From Stegostoma tigrinum (taxonomy: Eukaryota): DNA of 64,000 nt. Each line of letters starts with the position of its first letter. Within the stretch, counting starts at the first letter, position 1. A program made the position numbers and the translations under genes. Shown here piece after piece: positions 9,531-64,000 of the stretch. The notes under the pieces were generated by a model. It made no database searches and was not told the origin of the DNA. It worked only from the letters and a program-made list of their open reading frames with translations. The DNA lies in NCBI RefSeq assembly GCF_030684315.1, contig NC_081365.1, forward strand, positions 77,166,127 through 77,230,126, given 5' to 3'.

Positions 9531-10691
9531 TGGGCCTAACAACTACCTGATTGATGCATCTGCCCACCTACTTTCATTGACTAGTGTACAAAGACATCCA
9601 GATCCCTTTGTACATCCACATCTCTCAATATTTTACCATTTAAACAATAATAGACCTGTACACAATACTCCAAATGCGGCCTAACTGAAGTTCTATACAG
9701 CTGCTACAAGCATTGCCAATTTTTATACCGTGTGCCCAGAATGATGAAGGCAAACGTGCCTTATACCTTCTTTACCACCAATTCCACTTCTGTTGCCAGT
9801 TCCAAGAAACTGTGGACCTGTATACCTAGATCCCTCGTCTGTTGATGAAACTGAAGATTTAGCCATATATTGTCTACTTTCCCCTGATATTAGATCTTCC
9901 AAAAGTGCATCACCTCACATTTTTTCAGATTAAATTCCACCTGCCATTTCTCGGCCCAAGTCTCCAGCCTCTCTATATCCTGTTATATCCTCTGACAATC
10001 CTCTTCACCATCCACAACTCCCCCAATCGCAAATGTACTAATCGTTATCGTTCTCAATTTTTCACATTCCCAATTGACACGGCGCCTCCATGGAGTGAGT
10101 GGGCTCACATCTCCACCCTCCTTTAAGGGAAAAAGAGTCATGCTCCATGTTCTAATCTCCTCTGTCCCCCCCCCCCTCTCCTGCTCTACTAGTGAGGAAT
10201 GTTTCTCTCTCTCTCTGTTTAACCTTGGGAATGTTTGGTGGATTCCAGTTTCTACTCCCACATTATCCCACGGTTTTAGTATGGTTTTCCTTCTATTGTC
10301 TCTGTGATCCCTTTGCTAGCTTGGCGTTGTGTCATTCAAGCAATTATGTCATGTCACCTCCCCCTCCCCCACCCAAAATATCCATGTGTGCCCTTCCATT
10401 AATTAATCTTGGAATGATTTGCTTCATTTCAGCCATTGATTGCAACTGATACTTTGTGCGCTGTGTCTGAAATAATGAGTGGGACAGTGGTCTGGCAGTT
10501 ATTGTTAAACCCCTGGTGCCAGTTAATCTGTTCAGAGGTCAGGTTCATAGGAAGGTTATTGAAATGATCCTTTTCAGCAGCTTACGGTGATGTTTTATCC
10601 AATTACTCTAACCCACATCCTACAAAGGATTGGCATTTATTGAATGTCATTTACCACAACAATTCGTCTGCTTCAATCTATTCCACCTTAC

Positions 10692-11396
10692 CTGGTTTCC
10701 TTTTCTCTTCTTCAGTCTCTTCTTGTTCAGCTTTTTGCAAGCATACAATTTCCCTGTGGCCTTCATCTGACAAGCAGACACCTCGCCAAACCCTCCCTTC
10801 CCCAAGACCCGAAACTCCAGGAACCAGTCCTCCCCAATGGGTTGAGCCTCCAGCCACTTCCACTGCAAGAACCTCATGAAATACATGCTCTCCTTGTAAT
10901 GCTCGAAGGGACTGTCCTCCTTTAAGAATTTCATGGTGGCCTCTTTGCACTCCCTGAAGAGATCCTCTCTGACATTCTCACAGTCCTCTTTCACTCTCAA
11001 GATGCTCTTTTCTTCCAAATAACTGCAGAAGAGCTCAGTCCCCGACTCCAAGAACTTGCTGATAATGTTTCGAGCTTTCTCGAGAAGACCTTCATCTTCT
11101 GCTGTGTCGTACACTTCAATAGCCTTCCAGAGTTCATTGGCCGGTTTGTACTCTGCCACTGAGTCTAAGTATTGCTGGAATAGCTTCTTCCCAATGGGCT
11201 GCTTGACACAGATGCTATCGAAGGCCAAGTCAATCTGCTCCTTCAGCGTTTCGCTCTGGGTGATGTGAGGGAGCTTCAGCTTGGCTCGATATTTCTTATC
11301 CCTGGTCATCTGCAGGTTGGCGGATCCATCGAAACTGCCCCGAGCTGAGATGTACGCGGAGTTGGCCACCACTGTCTGCAGACTCCCCAAATCCAT
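10692..11396 (-). CDS. GRK1: Rhodopsin kinase GRK1 (GRK1B-like), coding exon 1 (235 codons); other exons not found in window
   Basis: [25 protein letters not shown]-terminus, RH domain ([12 protein letters not shown]), kinase start [39 protein letters not shown]; donor CAG|gtaagg at 10692/10691 matches the GRK1 exon-1 boundary. Confidence 0.95.
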
Positions 11397-11574
11397 CCTG
11401 ATGTCTTTGGTTGCTAATTCACTTCAACCAGAGCAAAACCATGTGAGAGATAGAGAGGAGGGGGCGGTGGGGCTCAAAAAATGCACAGCAGGATCCCAAC
11501 ACTCTGGGGCCCTACAACATGCTCAACAACAGAGCAAACAAAAGGAACTGAGGAGAGGGGCTCAGTGTCTGTGC

Positions 11575-26296: not shown

Positions 26297-26599
26297 CTGA
26301 AAGGTGGGAAGACAGGGGTCAGAGCTAGAGAAGATGATTCGGTGGTCAGCAGATACAGCCAGAGAGTAGTAAAGATGTACAGCATGGAGAACACCCTTCG
26401 GCCCAACTCGTACTTGCTGACCAGATATCCTAAATTAATATATTCCCATTTGCCAGCATTTGGCCCATATTCCTCTAAACTCTTCCTATACATATGCCGA
26501 TCCAGATGACTTTTAAATGTTGTAATAGTACCAGCTTCCATCACTTCGTCTGGCAGCTCATTCCATACACACCCTCCACTATTCCATACACACCCTCAC

Positions 26600-28420
26600 A
26601 AAGGCATTTTACACTTACGTGAGGAATAAGAGAATGGTCAAAGAAAGAGTAGGGCCGATCAGGGATAGCATAGGGAACTTGTGTGTGGAGCCTGAGGAGG
26701 TAGGGGAAGCCCTAAATGAGTTTTTTGCTTCTGTCTTTACGAAAGAAACGACCTGTGTAGTGAATGAAACCTTTGAAGAGCAGGTGTGCATGCTGGAATG
26801 GATAGAGATAGAGGAAGCTGATGTACTGAAAATTTTGTCAAACATTAAGATTGACAAGTCGCCAGGCCCGGATCAGATTTGTCCTCGGCTGCTTTGGGAA
26901 GCGAGAAATGCAATTGCTTCGCCACTTGCGAAGATCTTTGCATCCTCGCTCTCCACTGGAGTCGTACCTGAGGACTGGAGAGAGGCAAATGTAATTCCTC
27001 TCTTCAAGAAAGGAAATAGGGAAATCCCCGGCAATTATAGACCGGTAAGTCTCACGTCTGTCGTCTGCAAGGTGTTAGAAAGGATTCTGAGGGATAAGAT
27101 TTATGACCATCTGGAAGAGCATGGCTTGATCAAATACAGTCAACACGGCTTTGTGAGGGGTAGGTCATGCCTTACAAACCTTATCGAGTTTTTTGAGGAT
27201 GTGACTAGTAAGGTTGATGAGGGTCAAGCTGTGGATGTGGTGTATATGGACTTCAGTAAGGCATTTGATAAGGTTCCCCATGGAAGGCTCATTCAGAAGG
27301 TCAGGAGGAATGGGATACAGGGGAACTTAGCTGCTTGGATACAGAATTGGCTGGCCAACAGAAGACAGCGAGTGGTAGTAGAAGGAAAATATTCTGCCTG
27401 GAAGTCAGTGGTGAGTGGGGTTCCACAGGGCTCTGTCCTTGGGCCTCTACTGTTTGTAATTTTTATTAATGACTTGGATGAGGGAATTGAAGGATGGGTC
27501 AGCAAGTTTGCAGACGACACAAAGGTCGGAGGTGTCGTTGACAGTGTAGAGGGCTGTTGTAGGCTGCAGCGGGACATTGACAGGATGCAGAGATGGGCTG
27601 AGAGGTGGCAGATGGAGTTCAACCTGGATAAATGCGAGGTGATGCATTTTGGAAGGTCGAATTTGAAAGCTGAGTACAGGATTAAGGATAGGATTCTTGG
27701 CAGCGTGGAGGAACAGAGGGATCTTGGTGTGCAGATACATAGATCCCTTAAAATGGCCACCCAAGTGGACAGGGTTGTTAAGAAAGCATATGGTGTTTTG
27801 GCTTTCATTAACAGGGGGATTGAGTTTAAGAGTCGTGAGATCTTGTTGCAGCTCTATAAAACTTTGGTTAGACCGCACTTGGAATACTGCGTCCAGTTCT
27901 GGGCGCCCTATTATAGGAAAGATGTGGATGCTTTGGAGAGGGTTCAGAGGAGGTTTACCAGGATGCTGCCTGGACTGGAGGGCTTATCTTATGAAGAGAG
28001 GTTGACTGAGCTCGGTCTCTTTTCATTGGAGAAAAGGAGGAGGAGAGGGGACCTAATTGAGGTATACAAGATAATGAGAGGCATAGATAGAGTCGATAGC
28101 CAGAGACTATTTCCCAGGGCAGAAATGGCTAGCACGAGGGGTCATAGTTTTAAGCTGGTTGGTGGAAAGTATAGAGGGGATGTCAGAGGCAGGTTCTTTA
28201 CGCAGAGAGTTGTGAGAGCATGGAATGCGTTGCCAGCAGCAGTTGTGGAAGCAAGGTCATTGGGGTCATTTAAGAGACTGCTGGACATGCATATGGTCAC
28301 AGAAATTTGAGGGTGCATCCATGAGGATCAATGGTCGGCACAACATTGTGGGCTGAAGGGCCTGTTCTGTGCTGTACTGTTCTATGTTCTATGTTCTATG
28401 TTCTATGTTCTATGTTCTAT
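26600..28420 (+). mobile_element. Young 5'-truncated CR1 with (TTCTATG)n tail, inserted in an older antisense CR1
   Basis: Open ORF, 3' UTR and (ttctatg) repeats at 28380-28419; minus-strand CR1 sequence continues on both sides (26366-26600, 28420-28830). Confidence 0.9.
26619..28310 (+). CDS. CR1 LINE ORF2 (5'-truncated), uninterrupted reverse transcriptase domain
   Basis: 563 aa with NYRPVSLTS, YMDFSKAFDKV, GVPQGSVLGP and KFADD RT motifs. Confidence 0.92.
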   Translation: MRNKRMVKERVGPIRDSIGNLCVEPEEVGEALNEFFASVFTKETTCVVNETFEEQVCMLEWIEIEEADVLKILSNIKIDKSPGPDQICPRLLWEARNAIASPLAKIFASSLSTGVVPEDWREANVIPLFKKGNREIPGNYRPVSLTSVVCKVLERILRDKIYDHLEEHGLIKYSQHGFVRGRSCLTNLIEFFEDVTSKVDEGQAVDVVYMDFSKAFDKVPHGRLIQKVRRNGIQGNLAAWIQNWLANRRQRVVVEGKYSAWKSVVSGVPQGSVLGPLLFVIFINDLDEGIEGWVSKFADDTKVGGVVDSVEGCCRLQRDIDRMQRWAERWQMEFNLDKCEVMHFGRSNLKAEYRIKDRILGSVEEQRDLGVQIHRSLKMATQVDRVVKKAYGVLAFINRGIEFKSREILLQLYKTLVRPHLEYCVQFWAPYYRKDVDALERVQRRFTRMLPGLEGLSYEERLTELGLFSLEKRRRRGDLIEVYKIMRGIDRVDSQRLFPRAEMASTRGHSFKLVGGKYRGDVRGRFFTQRVVRAWNALPAAVVEARSLGSFKRLLDMHMVTEI

Positions 28421-35189: not shown

Positions 35190-35400
35190 AAAACCGAAAG
35201 AACTGCGGATGATGCAAATCAGGGACAAAAACAAAAGTGACTGGAAAAGCTCAGCGGGTCTGGCAGCATCTGTGAAGGAAAAAACAGAGTTAACGTTTCG
35301 GGCCCGGTGTCCCTTCCTCAGAACTCACCGGACCCGAAACGTTAACTCTGTTTTCTCCTCCACAGATGCTGCCAGACCTGCTGAGCTTTTCCAGCAACTT
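35190..35400. mobile_element. Fold-back Penelope-like terminal-repeat element
   Basis: Inverted arms 35241-35309 / 35326-35394 around the hammerhead core. Confidence 0.75.
35287..35326 (-). ncRNA. Minimal type I hammerhead ribozyme (intact core)
   Basis: Minus strand GAGUU CUGAGGA A GGG acaccggg CCC GAAA CGUU AACUC: core boxes, stem II, palindromic ACGU in place of stem III, 5-bp stem I GAGUU/AACUC. Confidence 0.75.
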
Positions 35401-36582
35401 CTGACATTTTAAGTGCTCATCCAGATGCTTCGTAAATGTCATGAGAGTGCTTATCTCCACTGCCCTCTCAGGCAACACATTCCAACCTCTAGGGGAGAAA
35501 ACAATTTTCTCAGAACTCCTCTAAACCGTTTCCTCCGCACTTTAAATTTATGCCCTCTGGTCTTAGACATGTCTGCCATGGGGACAGAGTTCTTACAAAT
35601 TACACTCTCATAATTCTGTAGTCCTCAATAAGATCCCATCCTCGACTTCCTCTGCTCCACAGAAAACAAACCCAGTCTATCCTTTCTCTCCCTTATAACC
35701 GAGACTTTCCACCACTGGCAACATCCTGGTGAATCTCCCCTGCACCTTCTCCTGTGTAATCATGTCCTTCCGATAGTGTAGCTCACTGGGTTCCATCTGT
35801 GGCCTAACCAATGTTTTATATAGTTGTAACAAGACTTCCTTTCTACACTCTGGCTAATGAAGGTAAGCATCCCATCTACCTTCTTCTATATTATTCCACT
35901 CAAGCCATACACAATGTTGAGGTATAGCTCCTCACCTTCCAATGGGTTTTTAGCAGGTTTCTAGACTCAACAATGAGTTCAACAATTTCAAACTTTTAAT
36001 GTCTGTTCCCCCTTTTGCTTCCTTTCTTCGGTTCTGTCTGGCCTCTCTGTTGTTGGACTGTAGCCATACTGCTATTCATATTTCTTATGGTCATACCTCT
36101 TGTTTCTTCAACCCCCCTCTAGGCGCACCGTCTCCTTTCAATGATAATAAATCTTACTATCTTTCAAATTTTCCTCTGAGAGGTCATCCGTCTGAAATAT
36201 TAATTTCACTTCTCTGGCTTGCTAAGAACTATCGACATTTTCTGTTTTTTATTTTATATCTCCAGCATCCACATTATGTTGTTTCCAGAAAGATTCATTT
36301 GAATGAGCTTTTCAAGGACTTACCAATTTATGGTTATAGCTAAACCCCTCTCTGGCCCTGACACACTAACTTTGGAAATCCGTGTCCAACGATAAACATT
36401 CTAAAGATTTTTAAAATAATAATGACTTTTAAAATGTTTAATACTTCAGATTCCACTATTATCTGTCTATGATCTATCCAGTGACAGTCTTCAACCTTCC
36501 TAAAAGGATTTCAAAAAAACAGACAACCTGTGCTTTTAATTGTATCAGAGATAATGGGAACTGCAGATGCTGGAGAATTCCA

Positions 36583-36766
36583 AGATAATAAAATGTGAGG
36601 CTGGATGAACACAGCAGGCCAAGCAGCATCTCAGGAGCACAAAAGCTGACGTTTAGGGCCTAGACCCTTCATCATGATGAAGGGTCTAGGCCCGAAACGT
36701 CAGCTTTTGTGCTCCTGAGATGCTGCTTGGCCTGCTGTGTTCATCCAGCCTCACATTTTATTATCT
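36583..36766. repeat. 92-bp-arm palindrome (1 mismatch, no spacer) made of two Penelope terminal repeats
   Basis: agataataaaatgtgagg...cccttcatca|tgatgaaggg...cctcacattttattatct; axis 36674/36675; element extends left to ~36545. Confidence 0.92.
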
Positions 36767-41084: not shown

Positions 41085-42220
41085 CAACTTTGAGGGCCCA
41101 TGGTGTTCGAGGTGAGCCACTGGCTTGGATTGAGGATTGGCCGTCTGACAGAAGGCAGAGAGTTGGGATAAAAGGCTCTTTTTCGGAATGGCAACCGGTG
41201 ATGAGCGGTGTCCCGCAGGGTTCAGTGTTGGGGCCGTAGCTGTTCACCTTATACATTAATGATTTGGATGAAGGGACTGGGGGCATTCTGGCAAGGTTTG
41301 CTGATAATACAAAAATAGGTGGACAGGCAGGTAGTACTGAGGAGGTGGGGAAGCTGCAGAAAGATTTAGACAGTTTAGGAGAGTGGTCCAGGAAATGGCT
41401 GATGAAATTCAATGTGAGTAAATGTGAGGTTTTGCACTTTGGAAAAAAGAATACAGGCATGGACTATTTTCTAAATGGTGAGAAAATTCGCAAAGCAGAA
41501 GTACAAAGGGATCTGGGAGTGTTGGTCCAGGATTCTCTAAAGGTTAACTTGCAGGTAGAGTCCGTAATTAAGAAAGCGATGTAATGTTGTCGTTTATCTC
41601 AAGAGGGTTGGAATATAAAAGCAGCGATGTGCTTCTGAGGCTTTATGAAGCTCTAGTTAGGCCCCATTTAGAATACTGCGTTCAATTTTGGGCCCCACAC
41701 CTCAGGAAGGACATACTAGCCCTGGAGTGTGTCCAGTGAGATTCACACGGATGATCCATGGAATGGTAGGTTTAACGTATGATGAATGGCTAAGGATCCT
41801 GGGATTGTACTCGTTAGAGTTTAGAAGGTTGAAGGGAGATCTAATAGAAACTTACAAGATAATGTATGGTTTAGAAGGGGTGGACGCTAGGAAGTTGTTT
41901 CCGTTAGGTGGGGAGACTAGGACCCGTGGGCACAGCCTTAAAATTAGAGGGGGGTAAATTTAAAACTGAAATGAGACGACATTTCTTCAGCCAGAGAGTG
42001 GTGGGCTTGTGGAATTCATTGCCACAAAGTGCAATGGAGGCCGGGACGTTGGATGCCTTCAAGGCAGAGATCGACAAATTCTTGATCTCAGAAGGAATCA
42101 AGGGCTATGCGGAGAGTGCAGGGAAGTGGACTTGAAATGCCCATCAGCCATGATTTAAATGGCAGAGTGGACTTGATGGGCTGAATGGCCTTACTTCCAC
42201 TCCTATGACTTATGGTCTTA
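41085..42220 (+). mobile_element. Young CR1 subfamily copy, frameshifted (same subfamily as 54325-54950 and 62908-63540)
   Basis: GVPQGSVLGP, RFADNTK motifs; 3' half nearly identical to the GDF-intron copies; cttatggtctta tail. Confidence 0.85.
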
Positions 42221-50287: not shown

Positions 50288-50441
50288 GAGAGATAACAAA
50301 GTGTGGGGCTGGATGAACACAGCAGGCCATGCAGCATCTTAGGAGCACAAAAGATGACGTTTCAGGCCCAAAACGTCAGCTTTTGTGCTCCTAAGATGCT
50401 GCTTGGCCTGCTGCGTTCATCCAGCTCCACACTTTTATCTC
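50288..50441. mobile_element. Fold-back Penelope mini-element with 15-bp target-site duplication
   Basis: Inverted arms around tttcaggcccaaaa; tccactagttgggga at 50273-50287 and 50440-50454. Confidence 0.8.
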
Positions 50442-52625
50442 CACTAGTTGGGGATTCTAGAACTGTGGGCATAGTCTGAGAATTTAGGACCAGGCCATTC
50501 AGGAGAGACGTTAGGAAGAAAGTCTACACACAAAGGGTGGTAAATGTTTGGATTTCTCTTCCACAAATGGCTATGGGTGTTGGATCTGTTGTCAATTTTA
50601 ATTCTGAGATAGACATCCTTTTGTTAAGGAAAGGTATTAAGGGAAACAAGTCAAAAGCAGGTTATTGGAGTTAGGTCACAGATTAGTCATGACCTCATTG
50701 TGGAGCTGAATGGCCTATTGGTGTTGTTATAGATGCCATTCCCCTCCCATTCCTGAGGTACAAAACTTCTACCATCAGTGCTAAACCCTTCCTACAGTTC
50801 AACAGAGGTGAATATTCCAACCTCCGAAACTCTGGGATGTTAGGAAGGAAATTTCCGCAGCTGGACATGATGACCTGGGATGTACTACCCAACAAGGGCA
50901 CAGACAAGACATCAATCCGAACCATCAAAAAGAAACCAGATGTCTATCTGAACCAGGCAAATCTCTCTTGGCTTCAAGGAAATTGCCAGCAGCTGGTGCT
51001 TTGGGATAGCACACAACCGCTGTCAATTGCGCTGAATGGGATCTTTCAGTTTATATCAACTCACTGCATGAAAGAAATTTAATGGAAGTTTATCTTATGA
51101 TTTATTGGAGGAAATCCAAGTCAAAATAAAGATTCCATTGAGACCTGACCATTCTGATGTGACATCATCAATCTGAAATGTTAACTCTGTTTCTCTCGAA
51201 ATCAGATGTTGGCAGGCCTGCTGAGTTCCTCCAACATTTTGTTTGTATTTCGGATCTTCCAATGATTTCCATTTGCATTGCTCCAAAAATCATCCTCTAA
51301 CTCAACATCAAGTGGCACACAATTTGATTTATAAGTTACATAAAGTTACACAGAACAATGTTATCACCCAGAGAGTGGGGAGACTAAGGAATGCAGTGCC
51401 TGGGAGTGTAGTTGAGGCAGGAAACCTCACAACTTATGTAAAAGTACTTGGATGAGCACTTTAAGTGTCATAACGTTCAAGGCTATGGGCCGATTGCAAG
51501 AAAGAATGGGAAGTAGTATGTAGTTGGCAGCATCGACTCAATGGACTGAAGGGCTTCTTCCATAGAAACCGCAAAAAGTGGGCCAATCTTCTCTATGTCA
51601 ATCCAAACGCACCCAGATCCCTTCGCTAACCCTATCTTGCTGCACACAGCCCATAGCCCTGTAGCCTACAGCACATAAGGTGCATCTCCAGGTACCTTTT
51701 CTTTAAAAATTAGTTTAGGTTCTCCAATTTCGCCACTGATTTAGGCAGCAAATTTCAGATACCAACCTTTATGCAAAATCATTTTCCCCTCTCATCCCTT
51801 CTAAAATTCCTGCCACGTTCGTTGAAACTATATCCCCTAGTTTTTGACCTCTCTGCCGGGGGAAATCGGGTTCAGCCTGTCTACTCCATCTCTACTCCTG
51901 ACAATTTTGAACACAACGCAGTACAGTTCTATGATTTAAGCAACTGACCCTCCCAGACAATGATGAATCCCAGACAGAGAAATGCCAGATTACACCAGAT
52001 ATTGGCAATCACATCGACTGGGGACCATTCAGATGAATCATCGTGAACTATGTTAATGTTGTACAGGGCTTTGGTGAGGCCTTTTCTTGAGTTCTGTGTC
52101 CAGTTCTGGCTAAAGGAAGGTTATTAAGCTGGAGAGGGTTTAGAGAAGATTGACCAGCACGTCACTGGGAATAGAGGGTTTAACTTATGAAAAGCTGGAG
52201 AGTCTGGGACCTTTACTCGCTGCAGCACAGGAGGTTGAGGGGTAAGCTTATAGATGTTGATACAATCATGAGAAGGATAAATAAAGTCACTGACTGGTGC
52301 CATTCCGAGAGTGAAGGATTTTCAAAGTTAGTGGACACATTAAGGTGAAGGGAGAAAGAATTTTAAAAAAAAGTCATGACTGATTGTTTTTAAAAAAGAA
52401 AATTAAAATGAGTGGCTCACGTGAAGAATAAACTTCCAGAGGAAGTGGTTGATGTGGGTACAGTTACAACATTTAAAAGACATTTGGATAAATACATGAA
52501 TAGGAAAGGCTTGGAGGGATATGGGCCAAGCGCAGGCAGGTGGGACGAGGCTCTTGTGAAGAGGATAATAAAGTGTGAAGCTGGATGAACACAGCAGGTC
52601 CAGCAGCATCTCAGGAGCACAAAAG

Positions 52626-52658
52626 CTGACGTTTCGGGACTAGTCCCTTCATCAGAGA
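52626..52658 (-). ncRNA. Minimal hammerhead ribozyme core within a Penelope terminal repeat (~52564-52660)
   Basis: Minus: uCU CUGAUGA A GGGAC UA GUCCC GAAA CGUC AG; all core residues intact, stem I only ~2 bp. Confidence 0.65.
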
Positions 52659-52840
52659 GGAGTGAAGAGGAGCTTGGGATGATGGTTGGCATGGACTGGT
52701 TACACCAAAGGGTCTGTTTCTGTGCTATATCAATCTACGACTAATAATAAGACTCTGCAAAGCAAACTGGAAAACTGTCATATTTGGGCATAAAGACGAA
52801 AACCAACTTGACACCGAAAATTATAGTTGGGAAGCAAACG

Positions 52841-52846
52841 TTTATT
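52841..52846 (-). terminator. Probable poly(A) signal of GDF copy A
   Basis: AATAAA on minus strand ~90 nt after the stop codon. Confidence 0.55.
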
Positions 52847-52934
52847 GTGGGCGAGAAATCAATTACATTAAGATGGCTAACTGCAGCAGCACAGGAACTG
52901 AATTTAAAAAAACAACTTTGCCTGGAGAGAGATC

Positions 52935-53737
52935 TCATCGACAACCGCACTCATCCACCACCATTTCATCGTAATGTCTCAGGACAACATTGTCATTGTT
53001 ATCATAATAGAGCATGGAGATCGGGGAGAGTTTAATGGGTACACAGCAGGGTTGGGGAGTGTCCTCAGGGTCAGTGGCATGCACCAGAGTTTGCAGAATG
53101 GCGTGGTTGGTGCCATTCAGGCTCTCGCTGAGTGGGTAAGGGCACTCCCCGTGGCAATAGTTAGCCATGTAGCCCTGGGGCGCGATGATCCAGTGCTGCC
53201 AGCCCACGTCCCTGAACTGGATGTGGAGCCTCCTGCGTTTGCAGACTCGGCTGAAGGCCGGAGGCAGGTGGAAGGAGCTCCTCTTCCTCCTTGACGTCCG
53301 GCATCTCTCCCGGTTCAGGCTCACCACCAGCAGAGAGGCGCGCAGGGCCAGGCCGAGGGGGGCACAGGCCGAGCCCGCTACCTGCCGGCCTCCCGTCGTG
53401 GGGCTGCCCACCTCCAGGATGGCACCCGGGTTACCGCTGCGCTGCCTCCAGGCCCTGGAGCTGGTGGTCAGGTCGAAGTTGAGGGAGACGTGAAGGTTCT
53501 GGAAGGACTGTGAGGAGATGAGGCTCGGCCTGGAGTGGGGAGTCACTCCCACCTTCCAGAGGGACAGGGTGCAGGTTTCCCCTGCTGTCCCAGGGAGTGG
53601 GTACGGCCCTCCCGGGAGACTCAGCTCCAGCTGGGCCAACGTCAGCTCCTCCGCCTCTTGCAGCACCGACAGGTTGAAGTAGAGTCTTCTCCGAGAGCAC
53701 AGCCACGGCTGGGATCCCAGGCCAGAGATTGGGCCCC
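52935..53737 (-). CDS. GDF3: Vg1/GDF1/GDF3 (derriere/DVR1-like) copy A, exon 2 (rest of prodomain, RRKR furin site, mature cystine knot)
   Basis: Acceptor gtttgtcag|GG, phase 1; [76 protein letters not shown], close to zebrafish Dvr1 and Xenopus Vg1/derriere; symbol is family-level only. Confidence 0.93.
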
Positions 53738-53759
53738 CTGACAAACAAGGGATAGGATA

Positions 53760-54320
53760 ATAATTTACATTTATATAGCGCCGCCAACCTACTCAAACAT
53801 CCCGAGGTGCTATAGAGCAAAGACAAACATACACAGAGTTAAGGGGTCAGGCAACACAAAGATCAGCCAAGGAAATACGTTTCATTTAAATCAATTAAAG
53901 CAATCTTGAGAATCAGGAAACCTCAGAGCCTGCGGCTGATGCAACTGAATGCACGGCCACCAGTGACAGAGCCATTGAAACTCGGAATGCAACAAGAGGC
54001 GAGAGAATGCTGATATCTCAGAGGGTTTTGGAATTGGAGGAGAAAACAGAAAGAGGGAGGGGCAAGGCCATGGAGGGATCTGAAAAGCAAGATGAGAATT
54101 CTTTTTAAACAACTGAGATGTCGCTTGAGCAGGAGCTGCTGTAGATCGGACAGCAGAAGGACAGATAAGGAAACAGACTGGCTGCAAATTAAGGCAAAGG
54201 AAACAGCATCTTGGATAATCGAACTTCCAGAGAATTGTACATCAGAGAGGAGCCAGGAGTATGTGAGAATAGCCAAGTCTGGAGTTGGATGAGAATTTCA
54301 GCAGCAAATGATCTGAGACA
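53760..54320 (-). mobile_element. L2 LINE 3' fragment in the GDF intron (continues ~55456-55930; mirrored in right arm)
   Basis: ILILLFRSLHGLAP...GGRAFS is the L2 ORF2 C-terminus. Confidence 0.7.
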
Positions 54321-54324
54321 GGAC

Positions 54325-54950
54325 CATAAGACCATAAGACATAGGTGGAAGTAAAGCTATTCAGTCCATCAAGTCCACTCCGCCATTTAAATCATGGCTG
54401 ATGGGCATTTCAACTCCACTTCACTGCACTCTCCCTGTAGCCCTTAATTCCTTCTGAGATCAAGAATTTGTCGATCTCTACCTTGAAGGCATCCAACGTC
54501 CCGGCCTCCACTGCACTCCGCGGCAATGAATTCCACAAGCCCACCACTCTTTGGCTGAAGAAATGTCGTCTCATTTCAGTTTTAAATTTACCCCCCTCTA
54601 ATTTTAAGGCTGTGCCCACAGGTCCGAGTCTCCCCACCTAACGGAAACAACTTCCTAGCGTCCACCCCTTCTAAACCATACATTATCTTGTAAGTTTCTA
54701 TTAGATCTCCCCTCAACCTTCTAAACTCTAATGAGTACAATCCCAGGATCCTTAGCCGTTCAACATACGTTAAACCTACCATTCCAGGGATCATCCATGT
54801 GAATCTCCGTTGGACACGCTCCAGCGCTAGTATGTCCTTCCTGAGGTGTGGGGCCCAAAATTGGACACAATATTCTAAATGGGGCCTAACTAGAGCCTTA
54901 CAAAGCCTCAGAAGCACATCGCTGCTTTTATATTCCAAGCCTCTTGACAT
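54325..54950 (-). mobile_element. Young CR1 3' fragment in the GDF intron (mirror copy 62908-63540)
   Basis: [15 protein letters not shown]...RGDLIETYKIM peptide. Confidence 0.85.
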
Positions 54951-54981
54951 CATGTAGGTGGAAATTACTGGTTTCAGTGAG

Positions 54982-55438
54982 AAAGACGCTCTTTGGTCTG
55001 CCTGTAACTTGCTGGTCTGCCAGCTGAAAGACCTGACCCCAACCGAATGTTGCAGACTGGCGCACTCCAAGGTCCAGGACTACGTGCTGAGGGACCCGCT
55101 GAAGCTTGGGGCAGCCGCCGCCAAGGCGCGGTGGGGAAAGACCATGGTATGAAACCCCTTGTCCAGAATAGAAAAAAAGGGCCCTATCTGGTAACTGGGC
55201 CCAGCTGGCATCTTCCCCAACTGGTCAGGGGGCCAACGGGGACTGTGCGGGGTGACGACTGCCGGGGTGTTTTCTTTGCTTTGTTTCTTTTTTCTTCTTT
55301 GTTTGTTTTTTTTCCTTTAGTTGGTGTACGTACCCCCTGGGTAACCCGGAGCGGCTTGCATGACTGGGTAGGTGTATAAATATGTTTTATGTTTTGTACA
55401 TCTTATGAATAAAGTATATTTTTTCAAATAAAAAAAAA
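54982..55438 (+). mobile_element. Tx1/L1-clade LINE 3' end with poly(A) and ~20-bp TSD (mirror copy ~62422-62879)
   Basis: KDALWSACNLLV..ECCRLAHSKVQDYVLRDPLKLGAAAAKARWG*; aataaa and A tail; aaattactggtttcagtgag at 54962-54981 and 55436-55455. Confidence 0.75.
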
Positions 55439-56690
55439 TTACTGGTTTCAGTGAGGAGATTGGAAGCTCATCTTGGGGTCAGATGTGACACCAAGTTTGT
55501 GAACAGATATGTAAATAAGTGATGAGTTGGAGACCATGGGGGAGTGGAGAGAGGTGGTGCTGATAGAGAAAGAGCCAGGAGCTGTCAGTGTGATCAGAGA
55601 GATAGAAATAGGAAGGTGTGGGGGTGGGGGTGGGTGAAGGTGAAATGGAATCTGGAGACAAATGGGAGATGGGGTCAAGGGGAAGGTTTGGATGCTTGTT
55701 CAGGCCAACAGTTGTTTTTCTGAGGCAACAGCAGATTTAAAAGAGAGGGAGGGAAAACACTTGAACACATGTTCCCGAATGTTAAACATCTGCACAACCA
55801 GCAAATGGGGCAGATCAAAACAGCCCTCTGGGTGGGCACGCTGACCCCAGGCTGATCCCTCCAACACAGAGTTGCACACTGACCCCAAGTTGACAACAAA
55901 TTCCCCTCCTCACCCCTCGTTTCCAGGTGACACAAACCCCAGGCTGACCTCCCCTCCTCCCTGGTAATGCCAAGCCCACACAGACACCACTTGCCTCAGG
56001 AACTCAGACAGAGCTGTCCCCCAGCCCTCCCAAAGGAAACAGGGACTCCCCGATTGACAGCCCAACCCTACACCAAAGCGGATGGGGGTCTACCAGTTAA
56101 GGTAAAGTTGTGATAACAATTAAAGGCTCAAATACATTCACCAGTCATTGATACCCAGCCAGAAGTGATAACAGAGCCTCCCACATTCCTCAACAGGACA
56201 GGAGCAGTGCAGCCCCCTTCCGGGGTATGGAGTGTCATTCAGAATTTACTACAGGCAGGGGATACAGGGTTTACCACAGGCACAGGATCCTGCCGCTCTG
56301 CAATCCCTGCCAATGGTTATCCCCTGCTCCGGGTTCCTCACAAATTTTGTTTCTCTCATCCTGTCAGCAGCTCTTTCCCGACATTTCCTCCTCATTAAAT
56401 TTTCCCTCAAAACCCTATTGATGATATTTCAGAGATAGTAGGAACTGCAGATGCTGGAGAATCTGAGGTAACAAGGTGTAGAGCTGGATGAACACAGCAG
56501 GCCAAGCAGCATCAGAGGAGCAGGAAGGGTCTAGGCCTGAATGCTGCTTGGCCTAGTGATGATATTGTCCTCACTCTGGGTGGTAGTGAGTACCAGATTC
56601 TAATCAGCGAGGAGTATCCAGCCTGGCTGACCCCTCTCAGCCTCCTCTCCCTCCCCACCCTCCCACTCACTCTGCCTCAGGGTTACTTAC

Positions 56691-56985
56691 CCAGATCAGG
56701 AAGATGACGGACTGTGTCTCCATCCACCCCCAGCTCATCCACTCGGCACGGGTCAGCTCCCGCCTGGTCGTCCTGGTGGGCGAGGGGCCTGGACCTCCTG
56801 TGGTACATTTTCCAGAACCGAGCTGGCACAGGCCTGGGCTCAGAGGGCCGGGGCCTGTTCTGTAAACCCAACGCTTTTAGAAAAGCCTTCTCCCGAGCCA
56901 GGGGCTCCAACAGCAGCTCCCCCAAACTGACTGGGCAAAGGAACATCACAGTGAAACAGAGAGGGAGCCAGCCAAATGCAACCAT
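56691..56985 (-). CDS. GDF3: Vg1/GDF1/GDF3-like copy A, exon 1 (signal peptide and prodomain start)
   Basis: ATG at 56985 (acaATGG); MVAFGWLPLCFTVMFLCPVSLG signal peptide, FLKALGL..RP....PVP..FWKMY, PCRVDELGVDGDTVRHLPDLG; donor G|gtaagt, phase 1; spliced CDS 1098 nt = 365 aa. Confidence 0.9.
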
Positions 56986-58097
56986 TGTTAGCTCTGGGAG
57001 CAAAGACTCAAGGAGTAATGATGGGCAGGGAGAACCCTGGGCCCAGCTCCTGTTACAAACCAGGGTCAGATTCAATCACCCAGTTAAGTGTTGATTAAAG
57101 CTCTCTCTCTCTCTTTCTCTCTCTCTCACATTCACTCTTTCTCTCTAATTAACATTTCAACAGGGAGTTCCTGGAGACTGCCTCACATTCTGGGGCTATG
57201 GGGAAACAAGGAACTCACCTCCCTTCCTGCTTCTACCATTTGGGACCCTGACTGCTGGTATTCCTGGGTTTGAATTAGCTGTCAATGCACATCAATTCTC
57301 ACCTATGGCATGTGCTCAGTGGCTCTTCAAAGGAGCCGAATAATGGTGTTTGCATCTGAAAGGAGCTCTCTCCCATCCCAGACACTTCACTGCTGGACTT
57401 CATGTTAATGTCATAATCTCCCCTTCGTTTCAGACAACTCTGAGGATCCTCCCAGACTGGAGTGTGTATTCCTGGTAGTCTGCAGGGACAGGCTTCCAAC
57501 TGTCAGGCCAAACAGAAATTCAGCCTTTCAACTCAAGAATGATCAGTCTTTCTTTGAGCATCAAGAATTTGGGAGGAATAGACAAATCTAGGCACGGAAA
57601 AGCACTCAGAGTTACTGATCTTTAGAAAAAAATAGATTATTAAGGCTAATAGGATTGGATTGCAGCCCAGAAAGTGGCCACAGTACCCTCTACCCCTCTG
57701 TGCTGTGCCCCCACACCCCCCCCAAGCAAAAGCAATCATTTCTGCACAGCCCTGCATTTTACCTGATTTGAGCTGATGATTCCGGTCTCATTTGAAGGCC
57801 TAAATTGAACCATTGTTATCAGACTGTTGAAAGGACCTCTCTCTGCACCCTCTCAGCAGCTGTAACACTGTACCTGTGCTCTGTTCTGTCGCCCTCATAC
57901 ACATGCATAGTACGATCTGTCAGTAAAGCATGTTAGACGACACTTTTCACAGTATCTTAGTACATGTTACAATATTAAATCAAACCTGTCCCCACTACTC
58001 GATCAGGAGGGCGTTCCTGACCAAATCTACCTGATGTGCAAGAAGATGTTCTCCCTACATCTCAAGATGTAGGAACAGAAGTACCCCATTCAGCCCA

Positions 58098-59146
58098 GAT
58101 AACAAGGTGTGGAGCTGGATAAGCACAGCTGGCCAAGCAGCACCTTAGGAGCTCTTATAGTGTCTTACTACGCATCATCCTCCGACACTTCCGCCATCTA
58201 CAATCCAACCCCACCACCCAAGACATTTTTCCATCCCCAACCTTGTCTGCTTTCCGGAGAGACCACTCTCTCCGTGACTCCCTGGTCTGCTCCACATTGC
58301 TCTCCAACGCCACCACACCCGGCACCTTCCCCTGCAACCGCAGAAAGTGCTACACTTGCCCCCACACCTCCTCCCTCACCCCCATCCCAGGCCCCAAGAT
58401 GACTTTCCACAGTAAGCAGATGTTCACCTGCACATCTGCTGATGTGGTATACTGTATCCATTATACCCGGTGTGGCTTCCTCTACATTGGGAAAACCAAG
58501 CGGAGGCTTGGGGACCACTTTGCAGAATACCTCCGCTCGGTTCGCAATAAACAACTGCACCTCCCAGTCGCGAACCATTTTAACTCCGCCTCCCATTCCT
58601 CAGACGACATGTCCATCATGGGCCTCCTGCAGTGCCACAATGATGCCACCCGAAGGTTGCAGGAACAGCAACTCATATTCCGCTTGGGAACCCTGCAGCC
58701 CAATGGTATCAATGTGGACTTCACATGCTTCAAAATCTCCCCCTCCCCACTGCATCCCAAAACCAGCACAGCTCATCCCCGCCTCCCTAATCTGTTCTCC
58801 CTCTCACCTATCCGCTCCTCCCACCTCAAGTCGCACCTCCATTTCCTACCTACTAACCTCATCCCGCCTCCTTGACCTGTCTGTCCTCCCCGGACTGACC
58901 TATCCCCTCCCCACCTCCCCACCTATACTCTCCTCTCCACCTGTCTTCTTTTCTCTCCATTTTCGGTCCGCCTCCCCCTCTCTCCCTATTTATTCCAGAA
59001 CCCTCTCCCCATCCCCCTCTCTGATGAAGGGTCTAGGCCCGAAACGTCAGCTTTTGTGCTCCTGAGATGCTGCTTGGCCTGCTGTGTTCATCCAGCTCTA
59101 CACCTTGTTATCTCAGATTTTCCAGCAACTGCAGTTCCTCTTACAA
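58098..59146 (+). mobile_element. 5'-truncated Penelope-like element: inverted terminal piece, GIY-YIG endonuclease, terminal repeat; 11-bp TSD
   Basis: ORF 58243-58875 CNRRKCYTC...VVYCIHYTRCGFLYIGKTKRRL..HF.E...VANHFN...EQQLIFRLGTLQPNGIN; cattcagccca at 58087-58097 and 59147-59157. Confidence 0.88.
59018..59051 (+). ncRNA. Minimal hammerhead ribozyme core in the Penelope terminal repeat
   Basis: uCU CUGAUGA A GGGUC UA GGCCC GAAA CGUC AG; predicted cleavage after C59048. Confidence 0.7.
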
Positions 59147-59326
59147 CATTCAGCCCATTGGAGCTACACCAAGATCCAATGATACTCTGTCTTCATGACT
59201 ACTTTTGTCTTTACTTGGAGGCCCCTGATTCTCTATCCCAGCCCCACAGGGAATGGTTCCTCCCTACTGACAATGTCCAGGCTCTCTTGACGATTTAGAA
59301 TAATGGAATGTCAAGTCTCACCTCAA

Positions 59327-59373
59327 AGTCAGTTTGGGGGAGTTGCTGTTGGAGCCCCCGGCTCGGGAGAAGG
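59327..59373 (+). pseudogene. 47-bp orphan fragment of GDF exon 1
   Basis: 45/47 identical to 60519-60565 (agtcagtttgggggag(c/t)tgctgttggagcccc(t/c)ggctcgggagaagg). Confidence 0.9.
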
Positions 59374-60465
59374 ACATAAAGGATTGGTAACTGTTAAATA
59401 TGTCTAAATGACACCACATCTCCAAAACAGAATTCAGCACTACACATTAAATGTAAGAACAGACTTGGCAGGGAGCACTGTACAGCTTGATACTCACCAG
59501 CTTAATAACGCTGTTAAAGGGTTAAATTCTGAAAACTGGCTCCACAGAACAGGCTTGTCCTTCCTCATCGTTCCCCTGGTGAGGAGTTCAAGCTAATTGA
59601 AGGGGATGGTAAGATGACTGAAGTTGTTGATATGTCAGGGAGAGAGGGATGATTGCCTCTGTTTGAGGGGGGAGTCCAGGATGGGGCAGGTGGGTGAAAG
59701 CATGACCTTAAAACAGAGCCGACCCATTTACAACAAGGGGTGTGCGTTTATGGCACTCTCTCCTCCAAAACAGCAGCTGAAAATTCTGAAGCTAAGTTTA
59801 GCAGATTTATGTTGGATTTAGGCAAAAATAATAACAGAACTGAAATGGATAGCTGAGGTTGGGCCACAAATAAATGAGTTGAATGGTTTATGTTAGTTTG
59901 AAGGGCTGAATGGCCTCTTCCAATTGCTGAACTATAAAGTAAAGCCATGTTGCTGCTGATTCCTTCTCTCTGAACAAGTTCGATTAGGAGTAATGTAGAT
60001 GAACGGTCTGGTTATGTGAAATCTGCGAAGCCCGTGTATCTGATGTTAGTCCCTATCAGTGAAGTGTCTGGGATGGGAGAGAGCTCCTTTCAGATGCAAA
60101 CACCATTATTCGGCTCCTTTGAAGAGCCACTGAGCACATGCCATAGGTGAGAATTGATGTGCATTGACAGCTAATTCAAACCCAGGAATACCAGCAGTCA
60201 GGGTCCCAAATGGTAGAAGCAGGAAGGGAGGTGAGTTCCTTGTTTCCCCATAGCCCCAGAATGTGAGGCAGTCTCCAGGAACTCCCTGTTGAAATGTTAA
60301 TTAGAGAGAAAGAGTGAATGTGAGAGAGAGAGAGAGAGAGAGAGTGTGAGCTTTAATCAACACTTAACTGGGTGATTGAATCTGACCCTGGTTTGTAACA
60401 GGAGCTGGGCCCAGGGTTCTCCCTGCCCATCATTACTCCTTGAGTCTTTGCTCCCAGAGCTAACA

Positions 60466-60760
60466 ATGGTTGCATTTGGCTGGCTCCCTCTCTGTTTCAC
60501 TGTGATGTTCCTTTGCCCAGTCAGTTTGGGGGAGCTGCTGTTGGAGCCCCTGGCTCGGGAGAAGGCTTTTCTAAAAGCGTTGGGTTTACAGAACAGGCCC
60601 CGGCCCTCTGAGCCCAGGCCTGTGCCAGCTCGGTTCTGGAAAATGTACCACAGGAGGTCCAGGCCCCTCGCCCACCAGGACGACCAGGCGGGAGCTGACC
60701 CGTGCCGAGTGGATGAGCTGGGGGTGGATGGAGACACAGTCCGTCATCTTCCTGATCTGG
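60466..60760 (+). CDS. GDF3: Vg1/GDF1/GDF3-like copy B, exon 1; exon 2 expected ~126 bp past the window end
   Basis: Translation identical to copy A exon 1; ATG 60466, donor G|gtaagt at 60760/60761. Confidence 0.9.
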
Positions 60761-60904
60761 GTAAGTAACCCTGAGGCAGAGTGAGTGGGAGGGTGGGGAG
60801 GGAGAGGAGGCTGAGAGGGGTCAGCCAGGCTGGATACTCCTTGCTCATTAGAATCTGGTACTTACTACCACCCAGAGTGAGGACAATATCATCACTAGGC
60901 CAAG

Positions 60905-61315
60905 ATAATAAAATGTGAGGCTGGATGAACACAGCAGACCAAGCAGCATCTCAGGAGCACAAAAGCTGACGTTTCGGGCCTAGACCCTTGATCAGAGAGG
61001 GGGATGGGGGGAGGGAACTGGAATAAATAGGGAGAGAGGGGGAGGCGGACCGAAGATGGAGAGTAAAGAAGATAGGTGGAGAGGGTGTAGGTGGGGAGGT
61101 AGGGAGGGGATAGGTCAGTCCAGGGAAGACGGACAGGTCAAGGAGGTGGGATGAGGTTAGTAGGTAGCTGGGGATGCGGCTTGGGGTGGGAGGAAGGGAT
61201 GGGTGAGAGGAAGAACCGGTTAGGGAGGCAGAGACAGGTTGGACTGGTTTTGGGAGCTGGGGATGCGGCTTGGGGTGGGAGGAAGGGATGGGTGAGAGGA
61301 AGAACCGGTTACAAG
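60905..61315 (-). mobile_element. Penelope terminal-repeat insertion private to copy B intron; hammerhead core mutated (CUGAUCA)
   Basis: Absent from left arm (empty site at ~56547-56550); caag at 60901-60904 and 61312-61315; internal ~55-bp duplication at its end. Confidence 0.85.
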
Positions 61316-64000
61316 CAGCATTCAGGCCTAGACCCTTCCTGCTCCTCTGATGCTGCTTGGCCTGCTGTGTTCATCCAGCTCTACACCTTGTTACCTCAGA
61401 TTCTCCAGCATCTGCAGTTCCTACTATCTCTGAAATATCATCAATAGGGTTTTGAGGGAAAATTTAATGAGGAGGAAATGTCAGGAAAGAGCTGCTGACA
61501 GGATGAGAGAAACAAAATTTGTGAGGAACCCGGAGCAGGGGATAACCATTGGCAGGGATTGCAGAGCGGCAGGATCCCGTGCCTGTGGTAAACCCTGTAT
61601 CCCCTGCCTGTAGTAAATTCTGAATGACACTCCATACCCCGGAAGGGGGCTGCACTGCTCCTGTCCTGTTGAGGAATGTGGGAGGCTCTGTTATCACTTC
61701 TGGCTGGGTATCAATGACTGGTGAATGTATTTGAGCCTTTAATTGTTATCACAACTTTACCTTAACTGGTAGACCCCCATCCGCTTTGGTGTAGGGGTGG
61801 GCTGTCAATCGGGGAGTCCCTGTTTCCTTTGGGAGGGCTGGGGGACAGCTCTGTCTGAGTTCCTGAGGCAAGTGGTGTCTGTGTGGGCTTGGCATTACCA
61901 GGGAGGAGGGAGGTCAGCCTGGGGTTTGTGTCACCTGGAAACGAGGGGTGAGGAGGGGAATTTGTTGTCAACTTGGGGTCAGTATGCAACTCTGTGTTGG
62001 AGGGATCAGCCTGGGGTCAGCGTGCCCACCCAGAGGGCTGTTTTGATCTGCCCCATTTGCTGGTTGTGCAGATGTTTAACATTCGGGAACATGTGTTCAG
62101 GTGTTTTCCCTCCCTCTCTTTTAAATCTGCTGTTGCCTCAGAAAAACAACTGTTGGCCTGAACAAGCATCCAAACCTTCCCCTTGACCCCATCTCCCATT
62201 TACCTCCAGATTCCATTTCACCTTCACCCACCCCCACCCCCACACCTTCCTATTTCTATCTCTCTGATCACACTGACAGCTCCTGTCTCTTTCTCTATCA
62301 GCACCACCTCCCTCCACTCCCCCATGGTCTCCAAATCGTCACTTATTTACATATCTGTTCACAAACTTGGTGTCACATCTGACCCCAAGATGAGCTTCCA
62401 ATCTCCTCACTGAAACCAGTAATTTTTTTTATTTGAAAAAATATACTTTATTCATAAGATGTACACAAAATAAACCATATTTATACACCTACCCAGTCAT
62501 GCAAGCCGCTCCGGGTTACCCAGGGGGTACGTACACCAACTAAAGGAAAAAAAAACAAACAAAGAAGAAAAAAGAAACAAAGCAAAGAAAATACCCCAGC
62601 AGTCGTCACCCCGCACAGTCCCCGTTGGCCCCCTGACCAGTTGGGGAAGATGCCAGCTGGGCCCAGTTACCAGATAGGGCCCTTTTTTTCGATTCTGGAC
62701 AAGGCGTTTCATACCATGGTCTTTCCCCACCGCGCCTTGGCGGCGGCTGCCCCAAGCTTTAGCGGGTCCCTCAGCACGTAGTCCTGGGCCTTGGAGTGCG
62801 CCAGTCTGCAACATTCGGTTGGGGTCAGTTCTTTCAGCTGGCAGACCAGCAAGTTACAGGCAGACCAAAGAGCGTCTTTCTCACTGAAACCAGTAATTTC
62901 CACCTACAAGATGTCAAGAGGCTTGGAATATAAAAGCAGCGATGTGCTTCTGAGGCTTTGTAAGGCTCTAGTTAGGCCCCATTTAGAATATTGTGTCCAA
63001 TTTTGGGCCCCACACCTCAGGAAGGACATACTAGCCCTGGAGCGTGTCCAACGGAGATTCACACGGATGATCCCTGGAATGGTAGGTTTAATGTATGTTG
63101 AACGGCTAAGGATCCTGGGATTGTGCTCATTAGAGTTTAGAAGGTTGAGGGGAGATCTAATAGAAACTTGCAAGATAATGTATGGTTTAGAAGGGGTGGA
63201 CGCTAGGAAGTTGTTTCCATTAGGTCGGGAGACTAGGACCTGTGGGCACAGCCTTAAAATTAGAGGGGGGTAAATTTAAAACTGAAATGAGACGACATTT
63301 CTTCAGCCAGAGAGTGGTGGGCTTGTGGAATTCATTACCGCGGAGTGCAGTGGAGGCCGGGACGTTGGATGCCTTCAAGGTAGAGATCGACAAATTCTTG
63401 ATCTCAGAAGGAATTAAGGGCTACGGGGAGAGTGCAGGGAAGTGGAGTTGAAATGCCCATCAGCCATGATTTAAATGGCGGAGTGGACTTGATGGACCGA
63501 ATAGCTTTACTTCCACTCCTATGTCTTATGGTCTTATGGTCCTGTCTGAGATCATTTGCTGCTGAAATTCTCATCCAACTCCAGACTTGGCTATTCTCAC
63601 ATACTCCTGGCTCCTGTCTGACGTACAATCCTCTGGAAGTTCGATTATCCAAGATGCTGTTTCCTTTGCCTTAATTTGCAGCCAGTCTGTTTCCTTATCT
63701 GTCCTTCTGCTGTCTGATCTACAGCAGCTCCTGCTCAAGCGACATCTCAGTTGTTTAAAAAGAATTCTCATCTTGCTTTTCAGATCCCTCCATGGCCTTG
63801 CCCCTCCCTCTTTCTGTTTTCTCCTCCAATTCCAAAACCCTCTGAGATATCAGCATTCTCTCGCCTCTTGTTGCATTCCGAGTTTCAATGGCTCTGTCAC
63901 TGGTGGCCGTGCATTCAGTTGCATCAGCCGCAGGCTCTGAGGTTTCCTGATTCTCAAGATTGCTTTAATTGATTTAAATGAAACGTATTTCCTTGGCTGA

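Follow-up and report, generated by a model that had tools for sequence, protein, structure and literature searches.

Two copies of one gene face each other in the genome of the zebra shark, Stegostoma tigrinum, and they raise the question of why their upstream DNA and first coding exon are identical whereas the intron beyond has diverged. The window analyzed here is a stretch of 64,000 nucleotides (NC_081365.1, positions 77,166,127 to 77,230,126 of the forward strand). An inverted duplication takes up its last 11 kb, with two copies of Gdf1/3 arranged head-to-head and each read outwards. The left arm (52758..57392, minus strand), delimited by self-BLAST and alignment, holds the whole gene with ~400 bp of upstream DNA and the 3′ end, and contig ends in the sequencing runs X11 and X13 place its outer branch point at 52758. 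The right arm (60057..64000, plus strand), recovered by the same two methods, leaves the window ~125 bp short of its exon 2. Both upstream regions are separated by a single-copy spacer of 2664 bp (57393..60056), found at single depth in the Stegostoma runs and in a relative (relative A), and the two start codons lie 3480 bp apart. The arm is ~4.6 kb long, 98.3–99.1% (~98.7%) alike between the copies, and sits on an 82-Mb contig, presumably of an autosome. Palindromes of the Y and X chromosomes have arms many kb long with >99% identity; the present arm is shorter and less alike than that, and carries a 411-bp indel.

The left copy encodes 365 residues in two coding exons (56985-56691 and 53737-52935). 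Exon 1 (56691..56985, minus strand) comprises 98 codons plus one base and includes an N-terminal hydrophobic leader and the start of the prodomain; letter-for-letter comparison finds the right copy (60466..60760, plus strand) identical to it. The remaining prodomain, an RRKR cleavage site, and a TGF-beta domain (PF00019, E 2.7e-38, above cut-off) follow in exon 2 (52935..53737, minus strand). A splice search gave three candidate acceptors for this exon, among which 53737 agrees with P0011, the S. tigrinum database entry "protein DVR-1"; the left copy differs from this protein at 0/98 residues in exon 1 and 0/266 in exon 2. A candidate AATAAA poly(A) signal lies at 52841..52846 (minus strand). 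The zebra shark protein is held in RefSeq as two adjacent accessions with two different names, which are probably the two arm copies, and their whole proteins would therefore be identical. Because every named near match is a DVR-1, Vg1, GDF1, or GDF3, the catshark "Vg1" included, the predicted gene in the arms is Gdf1/3 (Vg1/DVR-1), an identity that relies on nearest relatives rather than on a tree including other BMP/GDF subfamilies. In zebrafish, a maternal Gdf1/3 pool pairs with Nodal and is active as a heterodimer (PMC5745085, accessible text), and in catshark Gdf1/3 is expressed at the blastoderm margin (PMC1847705, accessible text). By analogy, the shark copies may act as heterodimers with Nodal.

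Neighbors of non-tetrapod Gdf1/3 are described as conserved and include BMP2, HAO1, TMX4, and others (PMC6134012, accessible text). The sole other gene noticed in the window is represented by a first coding exon resembling that of rhodopsin kinase (GRK1; 10647-11423, minus strand), ~42 kb from the left Gdf1/3 copy and absent among the neighbors listed in the accessible part of that paper. Directly upstream of exon 1, the segment up to the repeat tract (56986-57102) aligns in translation with a predicted N-terminal extension in Heptranchias and may be a conserved promoter or 5′ untranslated region, or an upstream start. No upstream exon emerged when the spacer was searched with the N-terminal 110 residues from 15 relatives.

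Global alignment of the left arm with the reverse complement of the right arm, within the window, shows how the differences between the copies are distributed. The preliminary description of this locus had reported the inner arms to be identical apart from a (CT)n tract, and this is borne out over 783 bp, 30 bp more than it had claimed. The identical tract covers 81 bp of intron, exon 1, and the upstream region in the left copy (56610..57392, minus strand; also seen in the X11 and X13 contigs) and corresponds to 60057..60841 (plus strand) in the right. Letter by letter, no difference occurs at 56610-57101 or 57116-57392, the 295 bp of exon 1 coding sequence included, and the (CT)n tract between them (57102..57115) contains a 2-base indel and two substitutions. 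All 43 inter-arm substitutions (1.75%) fall in the mid-intron (54148..56609, minus strand), and five indels of 2, 1, 1, 1, and 411 bases lie beyond the inner tract. Three substitutions just past the tract, as had been described, are located at 56588, 56605, and 56609 (60863, 60846, and 60842 in the right arm), within the 63 bp that separate the tract from the 411-bp indel; run X11 carries the right-arm letters of this cluster (56588..56609) and run X13 the left-arm letters. The peptide of the intronic LINE was also said to differ between the copies, and it does, at 8 of 163 residues rather than at 7 of 160. CpG-type changes account for 12 of the 43 substitutions, and CpG decay alone was rejected as the cause of the pattern.

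The contrast is not one of the center against the rest. A second homogeneous block (52758..54147, minus strand) spans the 3′ flank, exon 2, and the end of the intron, with 53863-54147 established by alignment of the arms (0 differences in 285 bp) and the remainder deduced from contigs. Within the intron, 55700-56546 is also nearly clean (5 differences in 847 bp).

Identity of this kind can arise if reads of both copies were merged within the tract during assembly or polishing. We compared positions 52700-60056 with public sequencing runs, of which 4 of 17 were used, all as assembled contigs, with bisulfite runs set aside as unsuited. Listings of contig joints and loose ends, dominated by repeats, were left out. 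Contigs of X11 and X13 (organism C), either of which may be the sample behind the window's own assembly, fit the unique parts with 0–3 other letters and break at 57392, 60056, 56547 (the 411-bp indel), and 52758. Arm contigs reach 1.56× and 1.88× the depth of spacer contigs in this pair, and 1.55–2.22× that of single-copy contigs in all four runs from both organisms, although contig depth is not a copy number. Seven of the eight independent known differences between the arms, all except 55761, were recovered from the listed contigs in one run or the other, and no other letters appeared inside the tract in either (56610-57094 and 57139-57392, repeats being skipped and the (CT)n tract uncovered). 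The far end behaves similarly: 52758-54083 has doubled depth with 0 (X11) and 1 (X13) other letters, which puts the exon 2 end roughly on a par with the palindrome center in homogeneity. Assembled contigs drop one side of a bubble and can thus mask differences, which leaves the artefact some room. However, the assembly retains distinct (CT)n alleles within the tract and three substitutions directly adjoining it, and known differences surfaced where they exist and not in the tract, making a merging artefact extremely improbable. The branch points, raised depth, and two accessions make a strong but not final case from contigs that both Gdf1/3 copies are real.

Relative A provides a measure of how old the duplication is. 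One of its contigs ends at 57392, a spacer contig begins there, and another reaches 30 letters beyond 60056, as do contigs of Stegostoma. Its two arms merge into one contig per part, at 1.55× and 2.22× single depth in its two runs. Relative A differs from the window at 28 of 545 positions in the exon 1 block (5.1%), 13 of 243 upstream (5.3%), 62 of 1157 in the exon 2 block (5.4%), and 6–10% of positions in the spacer and 3′ flank. In the intron (55531-56450) it differs at 66 of 920 positions (7.2%), compared with 9 of 920 (1.0%) between the copies within the window. The preliminary description had expected the intron to cluster by copy; it clusters by species instead. Without exchange, ~38 differences would be expected in the 733 bp of the tract compared, and none is observed, which together with the junctions common to relative A upholds its proposal of gene conversion and concerted evolution. 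Judged from these contigs, the duplication is older than the split from relative A, because the same inner junctions and spacer occur there, and the arms evolve in concert, because copies differ by 0–2% and species by 5–7% over the whole arm, including the intron. At nine inter-arm differences of the window whose state is readable in relative A (eight substitutions and one indel), that relative has the right-arm state at six and the left-arm state at three, with agreement between its two runs; mutations newly arisen on one arm or the other would give such a distribution. Measured roughly against the time elapsed since relative A split off, overwriting would have reached the whole arm, on average during the final seventh of that time in the intron and during the final 8% in the tract. 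Arms of Y and X palindromes diverge between species more slowly than their spacers; here, the species differ at 66/920 positions of the intron and 117/1368 of the spacer (P = 0.24). The outer end of the homogeneous block varies by species, lying at 52758 in Stegostoma and apparently near the stop codon in relative A, whose contigs break at 52933-52962 and whose 3′ flank is covered in part by two separate contigs.

Near-identity of the copies could also mean that each lineage duplicated the gene recently and on its own, and that purifying selection, without conversion, kept exon 1 and promoter alike. Separate events have precedent, since Gdf1/3 was duplicated independently in anurans and mammals (PMC6134012, accessible text). 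Database matches give one accession each for Heterodontus, Mustelus, Cetorhinus, Carcharodon, and S. canicula, and only isoforms for rays, and the pairs of Heptranchias and Pristiophorus described below may well be separate events. However, both junctions recur in relative A, and separate events would not match so. Exon 1 is moreover loosely constrained, differing from the bamboo sharks at 20–21 of 97 residues and from relative A at ~5% of bases. We consider this explanation very unlikely for the zebra shark arms. Selection does account for part of the low divergence upstream, because that region is still alignable with Heptranchias across the repeat tract.

With conversion between old arms as the preferred reading, the question becomes whether the tract is special along the arm. 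The uneven spread of substitutions (KS P = 0.0005 for the whole arm; P = 0.11 for the intron alone) shows that the arms are a mosaic of conversion tracts. Under even scatter, a run as long as the tract has P = 0.0015 with the (CT)n tract removed and P = 0.052 if the CT differences count as a break; uniform divergence, which would have undone the earlier account, is thus not what the alignment displays. We also simulated uniform conversion with mean tracts of 100–4000 bases, clipped at the arm ends, and rates scaled by between-species divergence. The inner run then has P = 0.02–0.09 in its own position and a run that long anywhere P = 0.16–0.50, so that under this model the inner tract alone is unremarkable.

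These results bear on the earlier version of the account, in which hairpin repair or conversion near the palindrome center homogenized promoter and exon 1 and left the intron copy-specific. Differences do thin out centrewards, from 2.1% (54327-55455) through 1.1% (55456-56428) and 0.6% (55700-56546) to 0 in the tract. Against a special role for the center, the far end (52758-54147, with 0 and 1 other letters) is equally homogeneous and the database proteins are identical end to end; the intron, as seen above, groups by species; and three substitutions directly adjoin the tract. A hairpin is further disfavored by the spacer that parts the arms and by the absence of any unusual intrinsic fold in the tract (z 0.69). 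Nor is exon 1 favored in two other sharks, where the copies differ at 1/97 residues in exon 1 and 2/153 in exon 2 (Hemiscyllium) and at 2/97 and 4/153 (C. punctatum). This version is therefore very unlikely.

Conversion across the whole arm may nonetheless favor both exon-bearing ends. In the same simulations, both ends being so homogeneous has P of at most 0.0013, with 5.2 differences expected in the tract and none seen, and ~7 visible ones expected in the outer block and at most 1 seen. Fisher tests of inter-copy against inter-species differences point the same way (P = 0.029 for the tract against the intron, and P = 0.002 once the exon 2 block is added to the tract), but these end-versus-middle tests are post hoc, use approximate counts from contig tables, and assume independent sites. 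A variant of our best explanation would have conversion act without preference along the arm, the homogeneous tracts being a snapshot of the latest patches combined with selection on exons. Several observations suit it: a 783-bp run somewhere along the arm is not unexpected under uniform patchy conversion; the homogeneous part in relative A seems to end near the stop codon and not at 52758; in Hemiscyllium and C. punctatum, exon 1 itself is not the same in both copies; and the retroelement part (24/1129) does not differ significantly from the unique intron (11/973; P = 0.088). The joint homogeneity of both ends, with rates already scaled to species divergence, is what this variant explains least well, and we regard it as possible without being the likelier case. 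That the extra homogeneity of the exon-bearing ends is a real bias and not a snapshot seems somewhat likely, and the tract is probably one patch of an arm-wide process biased toward these ends.

Repeats within and around the arms carry their own record of exchange. A LINE fragment occurs in both arms (54327..54950, minus strand; 62911-63536 in the right), with a third copy at 41596-42220 identified by alignment. We take it to be a CR1 element, although it has no Pfam match. The arm copies differ at 13 positions, and 31 differences from the third copy are common to both arms. Overwriting of the intronic LINE by the third copy is not indicated (a 7 versus 6 split), and a 9-base match flanking the LINE was rejected as a target-site duplication because it is located within the element. 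A truncated retroelement (54962..55455, plus strand), A-rich in its tail and bounded by a 20-bp target-site duplication (54962-54981 and 55436-55455), is likewise present in both arms. Both intronic retroelement families are far thinner in the runs of relative A, which suggests that retroelement insertions have also been copied across the arms; the pieces listed for relative A stop short of 54090-55530. The 411 bp of repeat-derived DNA (60905..61315, plus strand) is present in the right arm only, with 4-base microhomology at its ends, and the X11 and X13 contigs break at the corresponding position, 56547.

Within the spacer, a 47-bp piece of exon 1 (59327..59373, plus strand; 45/47 alike) occurs in X11 and X13 and is missing in relative A (run X1), which has ~5 other letters where the window has 59329-59371. 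This piece is likely a trace of templated repair or insertion from an arm. The spacer also holds a very high-copy element (58097-59139) with a 250-codon frame, inverted ends, and no Pfam match, whose tail recurs at 56429-56522, 52564-52660, and 60903-61255; presumably it is Penelope-like. Elsewhere in the window we noted short near-perfect palindromes at 36583-36766 (184 bp), 50290-50441 (152 bp), and 35232-35403 (172 bp), the first two built from the same repeat end in two copies joined tail to tail. A 593-codon open frame at 26529-28310 (plus strand) is assumed to be a LINE reverse transcriptase-like element.

Taken together, the locus is very probably an old head-to-head duplication of the whole Gdf1/3 gene whose arms overwrite each other by non-allelic gene conversion. 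A break in one arm would be repaired off the other arm 2.7 kb away, with tracts of hundreds of bases, and the 783-bp tract would be the most recent or most frequent of such patches. The 411-bp indel and retroelements plausibly halt tracts or mutate faster, leaving a diverged mid-intron, and the three substitutions beside the indel would fit tracts stalling at a large mismatch. Selection plausibly favors the overwriting of damaged exons, which would leave the exon-bearing ends homogeneous. The outcome would be two genes with one protein, a dose effect on the Nodal-pairing Vg1 pool, and blocked divergence of the copies.

Near-identical protein pairs were also found in five other sharks, known as proteins rather than as oriented gene pairs: Hemiscyllium ocellatum (3 differences), Chiloscyllium punctatum (6), C. 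plagiosum (3), Heptranchias perlo (2), and Pristiophorus japonicus (3 and a 4-residue gap). By comparison, the zebra shark protein differs from those of bamboo sharks at 49–50 residues. In three of the five species the pair lies on adjacent accessions of one contig, and one C. plagiosum copy, whose contig is 5.4 kb long, may be a duplicate created by the assembly. A tree of 22 proteins, from which ray isoforms, unnamed Logan proteins, and duplicate records were left out, recovers four of the five pairs as starred clades, with the Hemiscyllium pair and the zebra shark unresolved within the carpet sharks. At residue 201 (P0003, P0015, P0016, P0013), one Hemiscyllium and one C. punctatum copy have L and their partners P and T, possibly a copy-specific difference that predates the split of these two species, or a parallel change.

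Inverted copies that lie close together are well known to undergo conversion (PMC3199776, PMC3194840, accessible text). Linked inverted copies of Capitella Dlx, Drosophila Hsp70, amylase, trypsin, and the Y palindromes share with this locus a silent and intronic identity beyond the reach of selection, although Capitella Dlx is converted around the homeobox only and the Y palindromes lie on a non-recombining chromosome (PMC3199776, accessible text). The closest likeness is to another bi-gene cluster of Nodal-pathway TGF-beta ligands, Lefty1/Lefty2 of eutherians and LeftyA/LeftyB of cartilaginous fishes, whose copies cluster by species or lineage and for which conversion including flanking regulatory DNA has been proposed (PMC12344233, accessible text). 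The Lefty genes are 47–60 kb apart, and the shark pair clusters by major lineage, not species (same source). Shark Gdf1/3, unlike Lefty, has start codons 3.5 kb apart, arms near-identical throughout, and species-wise grouping. The pairs GDF1/GDF3 of mammals and Vg1/derriere of anurans arose by duplication of the same ancestral gene; they diverged and divided the work (PMC6134012, accessible text), whereas the zebra shark copies remain identical.

For chondrichthyans, a single Gdf1/3 copy has been stated, from the elephant shark (PMC6134012, accessible text), which is also the only chondrichthyan mentioned in the accessible part of PMC10794066. A term search of the main text of the zebra shark genome paper, as accessible, gave no match for vg1 or dvr (PMC10620051), and the accessible part of PMC12344233 mentions no shark Gdf1/3 pair. 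No report of two shark Gdf1/3 copies was found in the literature searched, subscription journals and supplements being outside its scope, and the RefSeq annotation already lists both zebra shark genes. The mechanism is thus textbook knowledge, and the duplication at the shark Gdf1/3 locus is apparently unreported.

In practice, any knock-out, probe, or expression count applied to epaulette, bamboo, or zebra sharks has to allow for two near-identical loci, which short-read assemblies will collapse. The locus is small enough to fit within single long reads, so that tract lengths and the effects of indels and retroelements on conversion are directly measurable. It lengthens the short list of early developmental regulators under conversion, and a duplicate frozen by conversion alters the history of Gdf1/3, so far described as single-copy outside mammals and frogs (PMC6134012, PMC12344233, accessible text). 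Tentatively, and with the balance against it, the twin Vg1, given the pairs in carpet sharks, Heptranchias, and Pristiophorus, might already have existed in the common ancestor of today's sharks, its copies kept interchangeable since then by exon-centered conversion and lost or collapsed in other orders. If so, sharks would have two Nodal-pathway partners, Lefty and Gdf1/3, subject to conversion, and the locus could serve as a natural control in asking why the duplicates of mammals and frogs diverged.
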